DNA of 64,000 bases from Clostridia bacterium (GTDB taxonomy: Bacteria > Bacillota > Clostridia > TANB77 > CAG-508), in contig JAFRNM010000004.1 of NCBI GenBank assembly GCA_017430135.1, forward strand, positions 5,499 through 69,498, written 5' to 3'. Under the pieces are notes generated by a model. It saw nothing but the letters and a program-made list of their open reading frames with translations, was not told where the DNA came from and made no database searches. Numbering within the stretch: the stretch's first letter is position 1; each line of letters opens with the position of its first letter. The translations under genes and the position numbers were made by a program. Shown one piece after another: positions 8,032-56,130 of the stretch.

Positions 8032-8643
8032 ATGAGAAACTGCCTATCAATAAACTTAAAAAGAAATGAATTAGTGATAAGAATAAAAGATGATGCAAAA
8101 TATGAGGACATATTAGAAAGTTTTAGGAAAAAAATACCAGAACTAAAAAAACTATATCAAGATGATACAACACCAATAAGAATAACAGGAAAATTACTTA
8201 AAAATAAAGAAATAGATGAAATACAAGAAATGTTACAAGAAGAAATAGGGGTAGCCATAGAATTTGATACTCCTAAAAGTTTAGGATTAGCAAGCATCAG
8301 AAAAACATTTGACCAAAAAATTGCTACATCAGAAACAAAATTCCATAGAGGTTCATTAAGATCAGGTCAAAGAATGGAAACAGAAGGAAGCCTTGTAATA
8401 ATAGGAGATGTAAATTCAGGAGCGGAAGTTGTTGCTTCAGATAATATTGTAGTTCTTGGAAGCCTTAGGGGACTGGCACATGCAGGGGCTAAAGGAAATA
8501 AAAGTGCAGTTATTGCAGCTGGAACATTTGATGCAGTACAAGTTAGAATAGCAAACATAGTTAAAGAAATAAATAGAGATGAAGAACCATTACACAAAAA
8601 TAGCTATTTATATGTTGAAAACGACAAAATAATAATAGAATAA
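8032..8643 (+). CDS. minC: Septum site-determining protein MinC
   Basis: 203 aa. C-terminal beta-helix segment GSLVIIGDVNSGAEVVASDNIVVLGSLRGLAHAG is typical of MinC. No minD or minE follows. Confidence 0.85.
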   Translation: MRNCLSINLKRNELVIRIKDDAKYEDILESFRKKIPELKKLYQDDTTPIRITGKLLKNKEIDEIQEMLQEEIGVAIEFDTPKSLGLASIRKTFDQKIATSETKFHRGSLRSGQRMETEGSLVIIGDVNSGAEVVASDNIVVLGSLRGLAHAGAKGNKSAVIAAGTFDAVQVRIANIVKEINRDEEPLHKNSYLYVENDKIIIE

Positions 8644-8799
8644 TCAAGAAAAAAGCAGTAATAGCAACAGCAAAAACAACATCTGATCTTTAATACCTTC
8701 CATGTACATGGAAAACAAAATGCATAAAATTAAAATATCATCTGAATATAAATCAAAGCCCAAAATACTAAAAAAAGGAGCTTGGTTAAAAAAATTCAA

Positions 8800-8832
8800 T
8801 GAACGCTTCTCCTCAGGAGAAGCGTTTTTATC
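8800..8832 (+). terminator. Terminator after minC
   Basis: aacgcttctcctcaggagaagcgttttta. Confidence 0.75.
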
Positions 8833-8895
8833 TTCCAAATTTTCCATTATTTTACCTCTTTCTGTGTAGAAATCGTTGAATTTTTCGTAATAGTT

Positions 8896-9374
8896 TTATT
8901 GATTTTGAGGATTATTAAACGCATCTGCAATCTTAGAAAAATTCAATAAATTCGCATACTGATCAATTTTTTCCTGCCTAGATTCTCTTAAATAAGGTTT
9001 TAAAGAATTTAGCAATTTATAACTTGGATCATTTTTATTATTCATATTCTCCATAATAGACTTCATCTTCATCATAGTATTTATATCAATATTACTAAAA
9101 TCAAAACCAGAATTAGCAGAATTTGCAGTATCTTGTTGATATGATTGAGTATTATTCGTATTAGAATTTTGGGAATGATAAGACGAATTATTCATATTAC
9201 TTTTGTATGTAGAATTGCTAGGGTTCTGTTTACTTTGCGAAGATGAATTATTCATCATTTTAGAAAAACTTTCAATCATTTCAGGAGAAATCTGGGAAAT
9301 AGCGCCTTGAATATTTCCACTATCCACCATATTTTTAATATTATTCATCGTTCTTTCATCAAAATTATTAGCCA
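8896..9374 (-). CDS. Hypothetical N/S/Q-rich low-complexity protein
   Basis: 159-aa ORF (start MANNFDERT with GAGGTGG RBS 5 nt upstream). About 40% N+S+Q+M. No recognisable domain. Confidence 0.5.
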
Positions 9375-9430
9375 TATAAACCACCTCATTTAATTATATG
9401 TATGTTAAGATAATTTTGTTACACTTTTAA

Positions 9431-9803: not shown

Positions 9804-12800
9804 ATGAAAGGAAAACTATTACAAAAAACAACAGCACTTATGCTAGTACTATGCATGACAATGGTAAACTTTATATTTGTTGCCACAAACATAGTATATG
9901 CGGTAAGCGAAAGCCAAGTTAGCATTGAAAGCGGAAAGATAACATTTGACGCTTATTTTAAAGACGCTAATGGAAACAAAATTTACACAAAAGAAGCAAA
10001 TATATCAGAAGGGGCTACTTTATATGCTAAAATTAAGCTACAAAGTGGTATTTTAAAAGATGCAAAAATCACAATAAACAATGCAAACTTTAAATTACCT
10101 GAAATAGTAAATAGCCCATATGTTGCAGGAGTAAACAATGCAACAAAAGAAATCAAATTCATAGAATTAGATGGAAGCCATGTAAATGATATAGAATTAG
10201 AAATTCCAGTAACATTTGAAAAGCAATCTACAATTGATGTAGGTTATTTTGACATGGAAAACGGAATTACCCTTTCAGGAGAATATAAAGCCTCTGAAAC
10301 ATTTAAATCAACAACAGCAACAATAAATACAAACCTAAAATGGAAAGAAGACGATTCAGCAAAAGCATTACCAACTGTTAATTATAAACAAGAAAAAGCA
10401 ATAAAAGACGGAAACAAAGCGCTTGTTCAAGAAAAATTAACAGTAAAAGGTGGACTTCTACCTAGATTAGAAGACCAATTAAATGTAACAATTCCAAAAA
10501 TAAATAACAAAGAACCAGATACAGTAACACTTTTAATAAATGGAGCAAAAGTTAACTTAAGTCCAAATAACATAACAACAGGAGAAACTCCAGCATTACA
10601 ATATACAAACACATTAAAAAATGGTAATACAATCAACTGGGGAACTGGAACAGATGTGTATACATTAATATATATATATGAAGATATAGAAAATATAGAT
10701 AGTGTAAAAACAGTTACAAGAGATATACAAACAGCACAAGTTAAGCTATCTGTATTAAATAAAACATTAGAAGACGATACAGTAAGATTACCAAAAGAAA
10801 GCAAAGGCCCAATGACAATCGAATTCAGTTACGGACACCATATTGTAAGTGTAGAAGCTACAAGTGTATCTAAAGAAGTATATAAAGGATTCATGTATGC
10901 AAATGCAAATAATGAAACAACATATACAGAAAAATATAATGTAGAAATATCAGATAAAACTAATATCAACAAAGTTGAACTAGAATTATTAAAAGATAAA
11001 TTTGAACATGTAGAAGTTGTAGAAGATAAAATCCAAGAAACAAACGTCCAAGAAACAAACAACCAAACAAAATACAAAACAATAAAAGTAGATTGGGATA
11101 GTGCAAGCAAAGTATTAGGATCAGATGGAACAATCAAAATAATAGATGATGAAGGAAAACAAATAGAAATAAATGCTTCATCAGAAAAAGAAGTTCAATT
11201 AAATTCACACAATATAACAATAACAACAAGCAAACCAGTAAATGAAGGAACAATAGAAATAGTTGCAGAAAAAACAATAATTGGAGATGCTGGACTAAGC
11301 AAAGAAACAATACAAAATATAAACGCAATAGTAACAAAAATGAGAGTTACAACAAACAAAGATGCTAATGGTTCATGGTTAGAGGCAATAACACAATTAA
11401 AAGAACCAACAACAAAACCAGCAACATTATCATTAACAAGTGGAAATGTATTTTCAACAAAAAATGTAAATGATGTAGAGTTCCAAGTTAAATTTCCAAC
11501 AGGAACACCAGATACATACTTATTTAAACAACCAAAAATAACATTAGAATTACCAGAAGATGTATCAGAAATATCAAACGTATCAGCAAAAGCATTATTT
11601 GCAGATAAAAATGAATTACAAGTTGAACAAAGTGATATAACAGTAGAAGGAAACAAAATAATAATTCCAATCAAAGGTGAACAAACAATGTTTGATAACC
11701 AAACAGTTGGAGGAATTGTAGTAACAATAAATGCAAAAGTAGCAGTAAAAGCTAACGTGCCAGAAGGAACAGAATTACCAGTAGCAAAAGCAGCAAAAGT
11801 AACAATGTCATACACAAACGAAAATGCTGCAACACAACCAGAATCTGTTTCAACAGATGTAATAATAGACATACAAAAACAAGAAACAGCAGAGCCAACA
11901 CAAGAACCAACACAAGAGCCAACTCAGGAACCAACCCAAGAACCAACACAAGAGCCAACACAAGAACCAACACCAGCTGTTGAAGAAAAAACAGATAAAA
12001 TAAAAGTTACAATGTCAGCAGTATCAGCTGGAGTAACATTAAAAGATGGAGACCAAATAAATGCAGGTCAAGCAGTAACATATACATATGTTGTAGAAAA
12101 TTTAACAAATTCTAATATAGAAAATTTAAAATTAACAGTAGACCATGATGGAACAGCAAAAATATATGAAGATGTAACAGAAAAAGACGAATTACAAAAA
12201 GACTATACATTTGAAAAATTAACAGAAAATACATCAAAAGAATTTAATTTACAAACATTATTAGCAGGAACAAAATCACAACCAATAGTATATCAAGTAA
12301 GAGTAAACGAAGATGCAACACAACTAAAATCTAAAGCAACAATTAGTGGAAAAAATATTGATATGGTTGAAATTAATAAAACAAATACAGTAAAACAAGC
12401 TGAATTAGAATTGGATTTACAAACAAATATAGCAAAAGAATATAGTGCTGAAAAAGATGTAATATCTTATAACATCTTAAAAATAGCAAATAAAACAGAA
12501 AACTTATTAGAAAATATTAAAGTAACAATAAAAGTACCAAAAGAATTCAAGATAGATAAATTAGAAGCAAATGTTGAAGGTAGCGAGGATTTTGTAATAA
12601 GCAATAATACAACAAATAGTAATACATTAACATTTACAATTAACAAATTAGCTGCTAAAAACAAAAAACAATACAAATTGTCACTATACATGCAAGAAGA
12701 GAAACCAACAAGAACAAATGTAGAATATAACTATTCAGCAACAGTTGGAGAAAACACATACTATTCAAATACAGTTTCTGTAAAATTGAGAGCAATGCCA

Positions 12801-19122: not shown

Positions 19123-19152
19123 AACAAAAACCTAGGCAATGCCTAGGTTTTT
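19123..19152 (+). terminator. Terminator after the 14284 adhesin gene
   Basis: aaaacctaggcaatgcctaggtttttt. Confidence 0.85.
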
Positions 19153-19159
19153 TGCATCA

Positions 19160-19228
19160 AACTTTTTGGGACACTCTTAAAATTCAAGGTTGAATTTTAA
19201 GAGTGTCCCAAAAATCAAGAGTATCCCC
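19160..19228. repeat. REP-like cluster (forward + reverse + degenerate unit)
   Basis: ctttttgggacactcttaaaattcaagg ttgaattttaagagtgtccc ... caagagtatcccc. Confidence 0.9.
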
Positions 19229-19246: not shown

Positions 19247-19301
19247 AGTCGAATTTTGTCGAACGATTTATGTTGACAAAAGCTAAAACGCATGATATAG
19301 T
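19247..19301 (+). promoter_or_regulatory. Conserved promoter module: tandem TGTCGAA-like (Spo0A-box-like) motifs + TTGACA-17-TATAGT, upstream of abiEi
   Basis: aGTCGAAtttTGTCGAAcgatttatgTTGACA. 34 nt are identical to the module at 52581-52614. Confidence 0.5.
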
Positions 19302-19475
19302 ATATTTAGATTATAATCAAAGAGTTTAAGCTTTAAAAAACTAATATTATCTTTGCGAAATAATTTATAAATTATTCAAAAAATTTTTATCTAAAAAATC
19401 ATGAAAATCCAAAAAACAAAATATAAATTTGACTTACTTATACATTTTGTATATAATATGTATAGGAGGGTCAAA

Positions 19476-20057
19476 ATGAAAAAAACAGATATTTTAAAAA
19501 ATTTTATTGAAAAAAATAATGGAGTATTATTAACAAGTGATGTTGTAAATATGAATATTCATAAGCAATATATAAAAATATTATGTAATGAGGGCTATAT
19601 TAGAAAAGTTGAAAAAGGGGTTTATGTAAAAAAAGGAAAGAACATAAATGATTTCTTTTTATTGCAACAAAGATATAAAAGTGGAATTTTTTCACACAAT
19701 ACAGCTCTGTATTTTTATCACCTAACAGATAGAACTCCTCAAAAAATAGATCTAACATTTAAAAACAAAATAAGGTTACAAAACAAACTTATTAATTCTC
19801 ATTATGTAAAAGAAGAATATTTAAATATTGGATTAACAAGCTTAAAATTTAATGATAATACAAATGTGCAATGTTATGATATTGAAAGGACAATAATTGA
19901 TATTATTAGAGATAGAAATAAAATAGATATTCAGATTTTTAATACAGCAATTAAAGAATACATGAAAATGAAAGATAAAAATTTAATTAGATTGGCTAAA
20001 TACGCAAAAATATTTAAAGTTGAAAAAATATTAAAGCAGTATATGGAGGTTTTATAA
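19476..20057 (+). CDS. abiEi: Type IV toxin-antitoxin antitoxin, AbiEi family (wHTH transcriptional regulator)
   Basis: About 193 aa from MKKTDIL (RBS AGGAGGG). The N-terminal pattern GVLLTSDVV..GYIRKVEKGVYV matches the AbiEi_4 family. 1-nt overlap (TAATG) with the downstream AbiEii gene. Confidence 0.6.
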   Translation: MKKTDILKNFIEKNNGVLLTSDVVNMNIHKQYIKILCNEGYIRKVEKGVYVKKGKNINDFFLLQQRYKSGIFSHNTALYFYHLTDRTPQKIDLTFKNKIRLQNKLINSHYVKEEYLNIGLTSLKFNDNTNVQCYDIERTIIDIIRDRNKIDIQIFNTAIKEYMKMKDKNLIRLAKYAKIFKVEKILKQYMEVL

Positions 20058-42337: not shown

Positions 42338-42731
42338 TCTACTTCATTCCTTTCTCAAGTTTTAATTTCGACATTTTTATTAATCTTATTATACACTAAT
42401 TATTAAATTTTTCAAGTGTTTTCAATACAAAAATTTTTTTGCTTTTTTATAAAAATAACTTGATTTTTCGAACTATCTTTCCGATTACAGAAAGTAAGTT
42501 AAATAATTCTATAAAAAACTAAATCCTTTTTTTTTATTTCATGTTCTTTTATGATATAATATTAAAAATAATATATGGATGTTGATTTTTGATTAAAAAC
42601 AGGACATTACAGGATATAAAAATGCCATAACACTCGTCTTATAAAAAAATTAAAAAATATGAGACAAAAGAGATAAGTAAAAGTATCTAATATATGAATC
42701 GATTATATGTACATATAAAAAAGGAGGAAAA

Positions 42732-51800: not shown

Positions 51801-52439
51801 TTTGGTTCAAAAATGAAAGTTAAAAACGGAGATTTAGTAGAAGCTGGAGATCCACTTATCGAAGGATCAATAAATCCAAATGACATCCTTGCAGTAAAAG
51901 GAGCAGAAGGAGTTTACGAATACCTAATCTCAGAAGTACAAAAAGTATATAGAAACCAAGGTGTTGATATAAACGACAAACACATCGAAGTAATTGGTAG
52001 ACAAATGCTTAAGAAAGTAAAAGTTGGAGACAACGGAGATACAACATTACCAGCTGGAGCTTTAGTAGACATGTACGACTATGAAGAAGCAAACAAGAAA
52101 GCAGAAGAATTAGGTGTAAGAAAAGCAGACGGAAAACGTGTACTACTAGGAATAACAAAAGCATCACTTGCAACAGACAGCTTCTTATCAGCAGCATCAT
52201 TCCAAGAAACAACAAGAGTTCTAACAGATGCAGCAATAAAAGGAAAAGAAGACGACCTACTAGGATTAAAAGAAAATGTTATCATAGGTAAACTAATCCC
52301 AGCAGGAACAGGAATGCAAGTATACCAAAACACAAAAATAAATACAGAGCAAGATGAAGAAGAAACAAACTCAGAAGACATTCAAGAAAAAGCAGAAAAA
52401 ATAAGAGAAACAGAAACAGTAGAAACAGCAGAAGAATAA
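48864..52439 (+). CDS. rpoC: DNA-directed RNA polymerase subunit beta'
   Basis: 1191 aa. GTG start after AGGGGG. Zn-finger CHCGKYK..CDRCG and catalytic NADFDGD. Confidence 0.97.
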
Positions 52440-52440
52440 A

Positions 52441-52468
52441 AAAAGACGAGCAATGCTCGTCTTTTTTA
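52441..52468 (+). terminator. Terminator after rpoC
   Basis: aaaagacgagcaatgctcgtctttttt. Confidence 0.9.
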
Positions 52469-52484
52469 AATTAACTTTTTAGAA

Positions 52485-52575
52485 TTTTGGGATGGAATTT
52501 TGGGACACTCTTAAAAATCCAGACTTTTTGGGACACTCTTAAAATTCTAAACTTTTTAAGAGTGTCCCAAAAAGT
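52485..52575. repeat. REP-like cluster (2 forward + 1 reverse unit) between the rpoC terminator and the TA/RAYT islet
   Basis: gggacactcttaaaaatcc ... ctttttgggacactcttaaaattc ... ctttttaagagtgtcccaaaaagtt. Confidence 0.9.
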
Positions 52576-52579
52576 TAGA

Positions 52580-52634
52580 TGTCGAATTTTGTCGAACGAT
52601 TTATGTTGACAAAATGCAAAAAAAGTTATATGAT
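52580..52634 (+). promoter_or_regulatory. Second copy of the conserved promoter module upstream of the AbrB/PIN TA pair
   Basis: TGTCGAAttttGTCGAAcgatttatgTTGACA, 17 nt, TATGAT. Confidence 0.5.
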
Positions 52635-52759
52635 TATGACAACTTTAGAATCTTTATTATTTATTTTCTAAAAAATTCCCAAAAAATATTGATAAAATTC
52701 CAAAAATATCATATAATATAAGTAAGGAAAGTAAGGAATGTAAGAAAAGAGGTGATACT

Positions 52760-53017
52760 ATGGAATTAGCAAGAGTAACTACAAAAGGACAGATAACAAT
52801 TCCAAAATCAATTAGAGAAATGTTAAACATAAAGGAAGGAAGTCAAATAATATTTCTTCAAAAAGGAAATGACATAATAATAAAAAATTCAGCTATGATA
52901 GCTTTAGAAAAAATACAAGATGCATTTGAGGGAGAAGCGGAAAGATTAGGATTAGAAAACGAAGAAGATGTAGTAAAGATGATAAAGGAATTTAGGAAGA
53001 GCAGAAAGAAGGAATAA
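52760..53017 (+). CDS. AbrB/MazE/SpoVT-family antitoxin
   Basis: 85 aa. Contains VTTKGQITIPKSIREMLNIKEGSQI, a SpoVT/AbrB swapped-hairpin domain. The stop abuts the PIN gene start. Confidence 0.7.
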   Translation: MELARVTTKGQITIPKSIREMLNIKEGSQIIFLQKGNDIIIKNSAMIALEKIQDAFEGEAERLGLENEEDVVKMIKEFRKSRKKE

Positions 53018-53018
53018 C

Positions 53019-53420
53019 ATGAAAGTAATGCTAGACACTAATATTCTAATATCAGCATTTATTTTTAAAAGTAATAAAATGAATAATTTAATTTATGAAT
53101 TATCAAAAAAACATGAAATTGTTATATGTTCATACACGATAGAAGAATTAAAGGAATTATTTGAAAATAAATTTAATGTTAGTCTAAAAACATTAAATTT
53201 ATTTTTGAAAAATTTTCCTTTTACATTGGTAAAATCACCTAATAATCCACAAGAAAATCTTTTCAATATTCGAGATAAAGATGATTATATAATATTATAT
53301 ACTGCGATAGTTGAAAATGTGGATGTTTTTATAACGGGAGATAAAGATTTTGATGATGTTGAAATTAAAAAACTGGAAATTTTAAAACCTTCAGAATTTA
53401 TTCAGAAATATTTAAATTAG
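53019..53420 (+). CDS. PIN-domain (VapC-like) toxin
   Basis: 133 aa. Starts MKVMLDTNILISA with later acidic residues, consistent with a PIN nuclease. Sits 2 nt after the antitoxin. Confidence 0.65.
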   Translation: MKVMLDTNILISAFIFKSNKMNNLIYELSKKHEIVICSYTIEELKELFENKFNVSLKTLNLFLKNFPFTLVKSPNNPQENLFNIRDKDDYIILYTAIVENVDVFITGDKDFDDVEIKKLEILKPSEFIQKYLN

Positions 53421-53500
53421 ATTTTTAAATCTTAAATAAAAAATTAAGTCATAAATAAATTCCAAAATAATATTGATAAAATTATGAAATAGGAGGAGTA

Positions 53501-54262
53501 ATGCCTAGAATAGCGAGAAAAAGTATAGAAACGCCATTTTTGCATGTAATGGTTCAAGGCGTGAATAAGGAATATATCTTTAACAATGATGAATATATAA
53601 AGATGTATTTAGAATTAATTGAAAAAAATAAAGTTGAATATGATGTCACAATACTGGCGTATTGCGTAATGAATAATCACGCGCATTTTTTAATGTATAT
53701 AGAAGATAAGGAAAAATTTGGTAAATTCATGCATCAAATTAATTTTAAGTATGCCAAAATGTATAATAAGATTGAGAAACGATGTGGAGTTTTGTTCAGA
53801 AACAGATATCAATCTGAACAAATATGTGATAGAAAATATTTGATTAATTGCATAAAATACATACATGAAAATCCTGTAAAGGCGGGAATAGTTAGGGACG
53901 CAGGGGATTTTAAATATTCTTCATATAATAATTATATAAATAATGTTGGTGAATGTCAGAGTCCAATTATGAAAGAAATTTTTGGAGAAAATTGCGATTA
54001 CCAGAAAATCTTCAAAAAAGTTCAAGATATGAGATTTATGGATAATGAAAAAAAACGAGATGATTTAGAATATTACATGAAAGCGGCTATAAATGAATTT
54101 ATGGTTATAAATAAAGTAGATCTTGTTGACATATTTGCAGATAGAAAGATTTTGAAATTGATGATAAGAGATTTAAAGAAAAAATACAATTATAGTTATG
54201 CGGAAATTTGTGAATTCTTCGAAATAACAAAAAGCAGGTTGGAGAGTTTAAAAAAAATTTAA
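53501..54262 (+). CDS. IS200-like Y1 HUH transposase, REP-associated tyrosine transposase (RAYT)-like, with a C-terminal extension
   Basis: 253 aa. HuH motif NNHAHFLM and a C-terminal catalytic-Tyr motif IKYIHENPVKAG (YIxNP). No IS ends or tnpB. Flanked by REP-like repeat clusters (52485-52575 upstream, 54266-54340 four nt downstream). The last ~100 aa are extra and possibly an HTH. Confidence 0.65.
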   Translation: MPRIARKSIETPFLHVMVQGVNKEYIFNNDEYIKMYLELIEKNKVEYDVTILAYCVMNNHAHFLMYIEDKEKFGKFMHQINFKYAKMYNKIEKRCGVLFRNRYQSEQICDRKYLINCIKYIHENPVKAGIVRDAGDFKYSSYNNYINNVGECQSPIMKEIFGENCDYQKIFKKVQDMRFMDNEKKRDDLEYYMKAAINEFMVINKVDLVDIFADRKILKLMIRDLKKKYNYSYAEICEFFEITKSRLESLKKI

Positions 54263-54265
54263 TAT

Positions 54266-54340
54266 TGAATTTTAAGAGTGTCCCAAAAATCAATTTAACC
54301 TTGAATTTTAAGAGTGTCCCCAAAATCATCCCAAAAATCA
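54266..54340. repeat. REP-like cluster (2 reverse units) 4 nt downstream of the RAYT stop
   Basis: tgaattttaagagtgtccc ... ccttgaattttaagagtgtcccc aaaatcatcccaaaaatcaa. Confidence 0.9.
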
Positions 54341-54405
54341 AAAAAATTCCCAATAGAGTATATTATATATTTAAAGTGTAAATAATTATTAGTAAAAGAG
54401 CATTC

Positions 54406-54519
54406 ATTACGAAAAAAATACGTAAACGGAAAAAATTCGTAATAAATTATTGATTTAATTGCTTTTTTGATGTATAATAAAATTACGAAAAAGTTCCGTA
54501 AACGGAAAAAATTCGTAAT
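54406..54519 (+). promoter_or_regulatory. Promoter (TTGATT-17-TATAAT at 54450-54478) bracketed by two 38-bp palindromic operator-like repeats
   Basis: ATTACGAAaaaaatacgtaaacggaaaaaaTTCGTAAT (54406-54443) and ATTACGAAaaagttccgtaaacggaaaaaaTTCGTAAT (54481-54519). The second overlaps the TSS/RBS region of the DUF4143 ATPase gene. Confidence 0.55.
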
Positions 54520-54530
54520 GGAGGTTGGAA

Positions 54531-55775
54531 ATGGAAATTAAAAGAGATTTTTATTTAAAAAAACTTATAGAAGGATTAGATAATGGACTTGTAAAGATTG
54601 TTACAGGAATTAGAAGATGTGGTAAATCATATCTATTAGATCCAATATTTAAAAACTATCTTTTAGAACAAGGAGTTAAAGAGAATCATATAATAAAATT
54701 AGATTTAGATGAAAGAGAAAACTTTAAATATCATAATCCAGATGAATTAAATAAATATGTAAAAGACAGAATTATTGATAAAGATAAATATTATGTTATT
54801 CTTGATGAAGTTCAAAAGGTTGAAGAGTTTGAATCTGTTTTAATAGGTTTTTTGCATATGAAAAATGTAGAAATATATGTTACAGGAAGTAATTCAAAAT
54901 TTTTATCATCAGATATTATTACAGAATTTAGAGGAAGAGGTTCTGAAATAAAAGTATATCCTCTTACGTTTAGTGAATATTATTCTGTATATAATGGTTC
55001 TGAGGAAAAGGCATTAAATGAATATTATACTTATGGAGGATTGCCATTGTGTATTCTAGCAAAAACGGATGATGCTAAAATTAGCTATTTAAAGGAACAA
55101 AAAGACAATGTTTATTTAAATGATATTGTTGAAAGAAATAAAGTACAAAATCAAGAAGAACTAGAAATGTTGGTTCAAATAATTGCATCTAACATTGGTT
55201 CACTTACAAACCCTTTGAAATTATCAAATTGTTTTAAAGAAAGAGATAAATCATCCACAATGACTGATAAAACTATCTATAATTATTTAAAATATTTACA
55301 AGATGCATTTATGATAGAAAAAGCACGAAGATTCGATGTAAGGGGAAAGAAATTTATAGAAACACCACAAAAATATTATTTTACTGATATGGGAATAAGA
55401 AATTCTTTTTTGGATTTCAGACAAAGCGAAGAGATATCACATACAATGGAAAATGTTATATATTTAGAACTAAGGAAGAGAGGCTATAATGTTGATGTTG
55501 GTTCTGTTGAGATAAGAGAAGGAGATAAAAAGAAACAATTAGAAATTGATTTTGTTGCAAATAAAGGCAATAATAAAATTTATATTCAATCTGCTTTGGA
55601 AATGAAAACAAAAGAAAAAGTTGAACAAGAACAAAAATCTTTAATAAATGTTAATGATTTCTTTAAGAAAATAATAATTGTAGGTGATAACATAAAAAGA
55701 TCTAGGTATGATAATGGTATTATTATAATGAGCATATATGATTTCCTTTTAGACCAAAGTAGTTTGGAATACTAA
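54531..55775 (+). CDS. AAA+ ATPase with DUF4143 (ATP-binding protein, defense-island associated)
   Basis: About 415 aa. Walker A GIRRCGKSYLL and Walker B YVILDEVQ. C-terminal DUF4143-like region. The promoter is bracketed by two 38-bp palindromic repeats. Confidence 0.75.
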   Translation: MEIKRDFYLKKLIEGLDNGLVKIVTGIRRCGKSYLLDPIFKNYLLEQGVKENHIIKLDLDERENFKYHNPDELNKYVKDRIIDKDKYYVILDEVQKVEEFESVLIGFLHMKNVEIYVTGSNSKFLSSDIITEFRGRGSEIKVYPLTFSEYYSVYNGSEEKALNEYYTYGGLPLCILAKTDDAKISYLKEQKDNVYLNDIVERNKVQNQEELEMLVQIIASNIGSLTNPLKLSNCFKERDKSSTMTDKTIYNYLKYLQDAFMIEKARRFDVRGKKFIETPQKYYFTDMGIRNSFLDFRQSEEISHTMENVIYLELRKRGYNVDVGSVEIREGDKKKQLEIDFVANKGNNKIYIQSALEMKTKEKVEQEQKSLINVNDFFKKIIIVGDNIKRSRYDNGIIIMSIYDFLLDQSSLEY

Positions 55776-55778
55776 AAT

Positions 55779-55815
55779 ACAACTCAAAAGCTACGCAAGT
55801 ACAAATTGCGTAGCT
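55779..55815 (+). terminator. Terminator after the DUF4143 ATPase gene
   Basis: aaaagctacgcaagtacaaattgcgtagcttttcc. The stem resembles those at 21118 and 63557. Confidence 0.75.
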
Positions 55816-55832
55816 TTTCCTTTTTGAAAAAA

Positions 55833-55860
55833 CTTGATTTTTAAGAGTGTCCCAAAAAGT
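55833..55860. repeat. Single REP-like unit (reverse)
   Basis: cttgatttttaagagtgtcccaaaaagtttg. Confidence 0.85.
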
Positions 55861-56030
55861 TTGTTACAAAAATGTAAAATAAAAATAATTTAATTGCAAA
55901 AAACGACAAAAAATAGCTTCCCTAGTTGGATAGAGGGCAATCCCCCAAAGTGGCAAAAACCGGTATTGATTTTATATATATAAGTAAGTAAAATAGGACT
56001 TGAATTATACTTTAATAAAAGCAAAAGGCA

Positions 56031-56100
56031 ACCTTGAATTTTAAGAGTGTCCCCAAAAGTTAAAGGCAACCTTGAATTTTAAGAGTGTCCCAAAAAGTTT
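56031..56100. repeat. REP-like tandem pair (2 reverse units) upstream of the giant surface protein gene
   Basis: caaccttgaattttaagagtgtcccc aaaagttaaagg caaccttgaattttaagagtgtcccaaaaagtttg. Confidence 0.9.
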
Positions 56101-56130
56101 GCAAAAGTATTTACAAAGGAGAGGCTGGTT

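Follow-up and report, generated by a model that had tools for sequence, protein, structure and literature searches.

The 34-nucleotide sequence GTCGAATTTTGTCGAACGATTTATGTTGACAAAA is present as exactly two exact copies in the window (the whole stretch of 64 kb that was analysed), at 19248-19281 and 52581-52614, both on the forward strand, and no match to it was obtained in 100 dinucleotide-preserving shuffles, even when up to three mismatches were allowed. The initial annotation had reported the identity of the two sites, with the first copy starting one nucleotide too far downstream, at 19249. In each copy a TTGACA is followed, 17 nt further on, by the -10 hexamer that had been pointed out previously (TATAGT and TATGAT, respectively). 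Both cores score 11/12 against the -35/-10 consensus, and the promoter so formed, designated P1, is predicted to start transcription at about 19307-19309 at the first site and at about 52640-52642 at the second. The downstream genes are those already named, abiEi/abiEii and an AbrB-antitoxin/PIN pair, and Pfam domains were found in them. The features of the two sites, and of the other places where the heptamer TGTCGAA was found, are the following:

19164-19213 (no strand): inverted pair of REP units following the terminator (19126-19152) of the surface-protein gene upstream; context, outside the module
19247-19253 (+): box 1 of site 1, AGTCGAA, 6/7 against the 0A-box core TGTCGAA, about -61 to -55 from the predicted start
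19257-19263 (+): box 2 of site 1, TGTCGAA, perfect 0A-box core, about -51 to -45
19273-19278 and 19296-19301 (+): P1 core of site 1, TTGACA, 17 nt, TATAGT; 11/12, TG before the -10
19429-19457 (+): P2 of the abiE operon, TTGACT, 17 nt, TATAAT
19476-20057 (+): abiEi, PF13338, weak match
20057-20911 (+): abiEii, PF08843, 1.2e-35
21270-21276 (+), 21305-21311 (-) and 21337-21365 (+): variant site, TGTCGAA, inverted TGTCGAC and TTGACT-17-TATAAT
42367-42373 (-): perfect TGTCGAA heptamer, intergenic
52498-52572 (no strand): three-unit REP cluster following the rpoC terminator (52439-52467); context, outside the module
52580-52586 and 52590-52596 (+): boxes 1 and 2 of site 2, both TGTCGAA, 3 bp between them
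52606-52611 and 52629-52634 (+): P1 core of site 2, TTGACA, 17 nt, TATGAT; 11/12
52689-52717 (+): P2 of the antitoxin/PIN operon, TTGATA, 17 nt, TATAAT
52760-53017 (+): MazE/AbrB-fold antitoxin gene, PF04014, 3.4e-12
53019-53420 (+): PIN-domain toxin gene, PF13470, 2.3e-11; also PF01850

The upstream part of the module consists of two direct heptamers whose starts are 10 bp apart at both sites, box 2 ending 9 nt before the -35 hexamer. The heptamers are one helical turn apart, as first described, but they had been placed directly upstream of the -35, which the 9-nt gap does not allow. Three of the four boxes are perfect 0A cores and the fourth, AGTCGAA, keeps G2, C4 and G5 and still qualifies as one; the direct repeat with a 3-bp separation that characterizes a dimer site is present at both positions. 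Both P1 promoters show the two hexamers, a spacer within the range of 16-18 nt and the gene-facing orientation of a sigma-A promoter. UP elements are A/T-only, and the module does not have the A/T-rich segment from -40 to -60, free of conserved G or C, by which such an element is recognised: G and C are its most informative upstream positions, and a TTTTT tract at about -41 to -37 is the sole part compatible with an UP element. A LexA/Cheo box (GAAC-N4-GTTC) was rejected by eye, the spacing here being 7, as were a CcpA cre site and a third direct box between box 2 and the -35. No Rfam family reached its gathering score in the window, the leaders between P1 and P2 included.

The window holds five perfect TGTCGAA heptamers, all intergenic and near promoters, although intergenic DNA makes up only about 10% of it. 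The third site indicated by the initial annotation, near 21270, is real; its build, with a direct and an inverted heptamer, is different from that of the 34-mer module, and it precedes an unannotated ORF of 240 aa (21458-22180). The heptamer at 42367-42373 lies, by eye, just 3' of a putative promoter, an abrB-like placement that would suggest repression.

The genes behind the two modules are paired antitoxin and toxin genes, abiEi and abiEii forming a type IV system and the antitoxin/PIN pair a VapBC-like type II system. Each operon has, in addition, a consensus-like proximal promoter, P2, absent from the initial annotation. As each operon owns its P2, the module is a distal promoter, separated from the start codon by a leader of about 120-170 nt. 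The two leaders are not significantly homologous (P ~0.07); a patch TCTAAAAAAT..CCAAAAAA common to both resembles a decayed REP repeat. Directly 3' of abiEii, in the region 20919-21112, a REP-like palindrome ATATTGGGACACTCCCAATAT has the appearance of a terminator-like hairpin, and it is followed by what appears to be the 3' remnant of a DUF2442 gene, which strain L147 has intact after abiE.

A scan for the pattern GTCGAA-N4-GTCGAA-N9-TTGACA in one genome per species (185,579 species) gave at least 119 matching loci, almost all of them in low-GC Clostridia. Among the 80 loci with listed titles, 74 belonged to MAGs of Clostridia, Lachnospiraceae, Oscillospiraceae or related Firmicutes. The flanks differ at every matched locus; the few matches in high-GC genomes fall within coding sequence and have the look of chance occurrences. 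At 80 of the sites in L001-L119 an ORF of 45 aa or more begins no further than 450 nt downstream, and neither tRNA genes (ARAGORN) nor a 16S 5' motif were found downstream of the module at 123 sites.

Conservation was evaluated on 93 distinct sites from genomes with less than 36% G+C. Both boxes (as GTCGAA) and the -35 were forced by the pattern, and their conservation in this set is therefore by construction. The free position before the box is T in 83% (box 1) and 88% (box 2) of the 93 sites, so that both boxes read TGTCGAA, the Spo0A "0A box". The 9-nt spacer CGATTTTTC is conserved as C (57%), G (70%), A (73%), five T residues (84-88%) and C/G, the CGA after box 2 lying outside the published 0A core, and TATAAT follows exactly 17 nt past TTGACA (T 84%, A 85% at its beginning, A 83%, T 74% at its end). 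The geometry, the free positions and the -10 at 17 nt thus recur at no fewer than 93 low-GC sites, in agreement with the promoter-like module with two 0A heptamers described at the outset, and this comparative evidence supports the reading of the 34-mer as a promoter with 0A boxes.

The exact 34-mer recurs in L043 and L055, which represent two other species, and in a metagenome contig, L131, the contexts being unrelated; L131, of 1 kb, was the single match in the JGI metagenomes, which is too little for a species-wide census. In L055 the 34-mer is followed by about 150 nt, a second promoter and a small ORF (HicA-like by eye, with no Pfam match), so that the succession of P1 and P2 before a toxin-antitoxin-like operon recurs there. 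When the consensus was compared by BLAST with phage records, the matches came mainly from phages of spore-formers (Bacillus 39, Paenibacillus 5), with single or paired records for hosts of the Lachnospiraceae group; the same comparison with plasmid records gave only chance-level matches in unrelated taxa. The copy in Bacillus phage BCP78 was discarded as promoter evidence, since it lies between convergent genes, has no -10 and is uninformative on promoter function.

The geometry of the module is specific. Among the IMG/VR contigs the spacing N4/N9 was counted 11 times, N5/N9 once, N4/N10 twice and N4/N8 not at all, and permuted boxes gave two matches. A selection-free set was assembled from five TraC-like homologues picked by protein sequence, not by motif, whose contigs were then fetched. 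Tandem boxes 10 bp apart were present in 5/5 of the intergenic regions between gyrB and the TraC-like gene, with 11 to 14 of 14 positions matching and each with P<=0.0055 against shuffles. The distance from box 2 to TTGACA was 9 nt in one of the five lineages and 19, 20, 29 and 37 nt in the others. As the gap to the promoter varies while the boxes are kept, the tandem boxes themselves are the conserved element, and the module with its fixed 9-nt gap is a common form of the tandem-box arrangement. The stepping of the gaps by about 10 bp could reflect activation from one face of the helix as readily as repression, or simply the gain and loss of 10-bp box units.

The commonest gene downstream of the at least 119 matches, at 22 loci, encodes a TraC-like protein of 180-196 aa (PF26593, precomputed annotation). 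A VirB4/TraG-type ATPase gene follows it, and the pair stands directly after gyrB in at least 16 species. The locus after gyrB (2133-6447 in L043, with at least 15 others, e.g. L014, L062 and L063) comprises the tandem-box promoter and genes for the TraC-like protein, the VirB4/TraG-type ATPase, a ParA/CpaE-like ATPase and unknown proteins. It is unusual to find a type IV secretion-like operon as a syntenic chromosomal feature beside gyrB. About 8-10 kb to the left of the window a gene for a VirD4/TraG-type coupling protein (PF02534, PF10412, PF12696; L179 173-1744) was observed, from which it follows that the source genome also has type IV secretion components. Rpn-type PD-(D/E)XK nucleases are the first downstream ORF at 8 of the at least 119 loci by Pfam and at 11 by clustering, the remaining first ORFs at matched loci including sortases (4), pilin-like surface proteins and single housekeeping genes. 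The association of the module with toxin-antitoxin genes, which the initial annotation had noted, extends to other species, where HicB, Phd, MazE, DUF4160, ToxN and a SocA/Panacea antitoxin were found downstream; with many other classes also present, this association is recurrent and not exclusive.

At three of the module loci (L036 2081-2317, L046 6663-6896 and L073 3344-3571, the last on the reverse strand) the gene directly downstream encodes a small protein of 75-78 aa with a sub-threshold match to Spo0A_C (PF08769; E-value 1.3e-4 for L036, 1.6e-5 for the best member). The hosts are higher-GC genomes of the Oscillospiraceae type. These proteins may be autoregulated Spo0A-like DNA binders.

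The module can be compared with promoters at which Spo0A has been studied experimentally. Dimers of Spo0A~P bind TGTCGAA, and the footprinted sites consist of two boxes separated by 3 bp (PMC2731898). In region 0A-3 of phage phi29 the A2b -35 is preceded, at a distance of 26 bp, by a consensus box whose partner is on the promoter side, and Spo0A represses A2b by blocking access of the alpha-subunit C-terminal domain (alpha-CTD) to the UP element (PMC2731898). Box 1 of the module likewise starts 26 bp upstream of the -35, with box 2 after 3 bp, which is the phi29 A2b geometry. The module has in common with 0A-3/A2b and 0A-1/A2c the two direct TGTCGAA-type boxes 3 bp apart, the distal box from 26 bp upstream of the -35, the strong sigma-A promoter and the occupied alpha-CTD space; as in phi29, it is also carried by accessory or mobile genetic material (PMC2731898). 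In phi29, unlike in the module, one of the boxes is an imperfect copy and a divergent late promoter is served by the site as well; binding and repression, putative at the module, are experimental there (PMC2731898). The module differs further in its setting, that of uncultured gut Clostridia, before chromosomal toxin-antitoxin, nuclease and secretion genes.

At abrB, tandem boxes 10 bp apart are located downstream of the transcription start, and at spoIIG, where the promoter depends on activation and its spacer measures 22 bp, they overlap the -35. The boxes of the module, unlike these, end 9 nt short of a consensus -35 that is separated from the -10 by 17 bp. The 7-bp TGTCGAA core is also what C. 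difficile Spo0A binds (PMC3485338), and this core is common to the module and to the Spo0A promoters of Bacillus and Clostridioides (abrB, spoIIG, spo0A, sigH; PMC3485338). Those promoters are under the sporulation master regulator, as the module putatively is (PMC3485338); its targets, in contrast to theirs, are not sporulation genes.

One of the low-GC MAGs among the matches, L025, encodes a full-length Spo0A with a conserved recognition helix, TASRVERAIRHAIEV, 36.5% identical to the B. subtilis sequence used for the comparison, and has tandem boxes about 115-130 nt upstream of its spo0A gene. The homologues listed for this protein, at least 120, belong to another lineage ("Bacilli bacterium") and could not be tied to the source MAG; neither the window nor the 10 kb to its left contains a recognisable spo0A gene. 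The initial annotation had also relied on sporulation genes in this organism, a claim that is weakly supported: an ORF at 55-300 carries a Coat_F domain (80 bits), but the matches to other families, SpoIIQ, SpoVD and YtvI, fall below the curated cut-offs. After minC, where minD/minE and spoIVF would normally stand, none of them is present; in the region 8032-9384 minC is followed instead by an unannotated gene of 162 aa on the opposite strand.

From these comparisons we consider it fairly probable that the 34-mer is a local copy of a widespread, stereotyped sigma-A promoter under Spo0A-type regulation in low-GC Clostridia and their phages. At such a promoter the near-consensus core (TTGACA, 17 nt, TATAAT-like) would let RNA polymerase start about 7 nt past the -10, and the two direct TGTCGAA boxes, at about -61 to -45, are arranged as in the sites to which phosphorylated Spo0A binds as a dimer. 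A Spo0A-type regulator would then occupy the boxes where the alpha-subunit C-terminal domains otherwise sit, and the output of P1 would be coupled to the decision between stationary phase and sporulation. The distal P1 would read through the leader of about 120-170 nt and through the P2 of each toxin-antitoxin operon, adding an input presumably independent of antitoxin autoregulation. The sign of the regulation is the least certain step. We lean towards Spo0A~P switching P1 off, since a near-consensus core promoter should need no activator and the geometry is that of phi29 A2b.

A strong sigma-A promoter could also have its upstream part read by a factor other than Spo0A, the 0A match being coincidental or the result of a takeover, although this appears unlikely. 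RNA polymerase itself would be one candidate; another direct-repeat-binding regulator, for example a stand-alone Spo0A_C-like protein or one of OmpR type, would be the other. The absence of spo0A from the window and from the adjoining 10 kb, the small Spo0A_C-like proteins encoded directly behind three modules, and the conserved CGATTTTTC spacer, which the published 0A core does not explain, all speak in its favour. They are set against the coincidence of heptamer, 10-bp direct repeat and distance to the -35 with footprinted Spo0A sites (PMC2731898) and the concentration of the matches in Firmicutes and phages of spore-formers. The small proteins, moreover, have by eye not retained the recognition-helix residues of Spo0A, and the conserved positions of the module are G and C, UP elements being A/T-only.

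The variation within the species bears on how the copies arose. The module and the toxin-antitoxin genes are constant in about 20 further contigs of this species spanning the region, and the upstream REP region is variable; in L148 and L153 the module is separated from rpoC by an extra gene. A third copy of the 34-mer is present in strain L148, where it follows the Y1 transposase gene and precedes an unrelated gene for an Rpn-like nuclease. This copy and the abiE leader of the window have 58 further nt in common (92 nt in total; alignment score 130 against a null of 28 +/- 6), which indicates that promoter-leader segments are exchanged between cassettes of a strain-variable island. That island, 3' of rpoC (52440-56130 in the window; also in L148, L149, L150 and L155), was seen to consist of short cassettes split by REP clusters, in an order that varies: the antitoxin/PIN pair, a Y1 transposase, a DUF4143 ATPase, the Rpn-like nuclease and DUF4160/DUF2442 pairs. 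Two strains have a PIN shortened to 52 aa, and one strain carries an upstream insertion of the IS3 family.

Putative mobile promoters have been defined as stretches longer than 50 nt and at least 80% identical that lie upstream of non-homologous genes, with flanking genes that do not align (PMC3488235). By this definition the window abiE leader and the L148 Rpn leader form such a pair, and the two copies in the window, with 34 nt in common, do not. There is a small chance that the identity of the 34-mers reflects nothing beyond recent recombinational copying of a promoter-leader between accessory cassettes, without selection for a regulator site. The L148 arrangement (34-mer and 58 nt of abiE leader before an unrelated gene, within the mobile-promoter definition of PMC3488235) and the rearrangement of the island downstream of rpoC between strains speak for it. 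The two window copies, however, share the 34 nt only, their leaders being not significantly alike (P ~0.07), and copying alone cannot explain the 34-mer and its near-variants in other species, in unrelated contexts and with conservation confined to functional positions. The module thus resembles mobile promoters in that one genome has an identical promoter sequence before non-homologous genes, and differs from them in being conserved position by position across many species, in the fashion of a binding site and not of a copied block (PMC3488235). Copying is compatible with the Spo0A-type reading, as the route by which copies arise.

The initial annotation had proposed that a repeat element delivers the promoter to the adjacent genes. 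The repeat, TTTTGGGACACTCTTAAAA, forms 26 units in the window, all intergenic, and these are real REP-type elements. Like REP/REPIN sequences with their RAYT, they are palindromic intergenic clusters with a Y1-transposase gene nearby (PMC8049555). This gene, at 53501-54262 (PF01797, 3.5e-10; 77 bits to the NCBIfam REP-associated tyrosine transposase, cut-off 80), is RAYT-like, lies among REP clusters and probably mobilises the TTTTGGGACACTCTTAAAA repeats. Both module copies do lie 3' of REP units, as had been stated, but the junctions differ, with gaps of 34 nt (site 1) and 8 nt (site 2) and unrelated filler. Of the 18 intergenic gaps that measure 100 nt or more, 11 carry REP units, and adjacency to a module is therefore expected by chance (about 0.37 for both modules falling in REP-bearing gaps). 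Of these 11 gaps two contain the module, one the variant and eight neither.

That the 34-bp module travels as an outward promoter on a REP or REP-derived mobile unit, which deposits it before cargo such as toxin-antitoxin genes, is largely refuted, and we regard it as very improbable. In its favour, both window copies, the 21270 variant, the third copy in L148 and the metagenome match L131 are all just 3' of REP or REP-like units, a RAYT-like Y1 transposase is encoded in the same island, and the last REP unit, module and toxin-antitoxin genes stay joined while the upstream content varies among strains. Against it, the REP core was found in none of the 130 loci fetched by the motif scans, no REP-like sequence surrounds the exact 34-mer in L043 and L055, and the empty gaps, the chance level of the adjacency and the differing junctions are as given above. 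The module shows neither the fixed junction nor the absence from repeat-free genomes of a REP/BIME constituent: unlike the parts of a REP/REPIN, it stands outside the repeat unit and occurs in genomes without the repeat (PMC8049555). It is no part of the REP element, and REPs fill most of the inter-operon gaps in this genome. The main value of the result as written is corrective, since with the link between REP and promoter coincidental there is no evidence here for a promoter-spreading repeat element.

The comparison supports the assignment of the module to a known class, the Spo0A-type tandem-box promoters, with accessory genes and the TraC/VirB4-like operon as its apparent recurrent targets. 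It is tempting to speculate, albeit with considerable doubt, that the tandem-box promoter could be a common control of much of the flexible genome in uncultured low-GC gut Clostridia, wiring defence and mobile functions to Spo0A, or alternatively that these genomes, being reduced, have lost Spo0A and another regulator inherited the 0A boxes. The flexible genome would in that case include toxin-antitoxin and abortive-infection systems, Rpn-type nucleases, the TraC/VirB4-like operon by gyrB, sortase and pilin genes and phage genes. If the Spo0A-type reading is confirmed, the motif would be a sequence signature predicting part of the Spo0A regulon in uncultured gut Clostridia not yet open to genetics, and their toxin-antitoxin, nuclease, secretion and pilus genes would be tied to the switch from growth to dormancy. 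Phage phi29 senses the sporulation of its host by the same logic. Among the IMG/VR viral contigs, L126 has at about 10200-10330, apart from its tandem-box promoter, an array of TTGTCGAAT-like repeats with irregular spacing, which may be a multi-site Spo0A-binding region like those of the phi29 genome ends.
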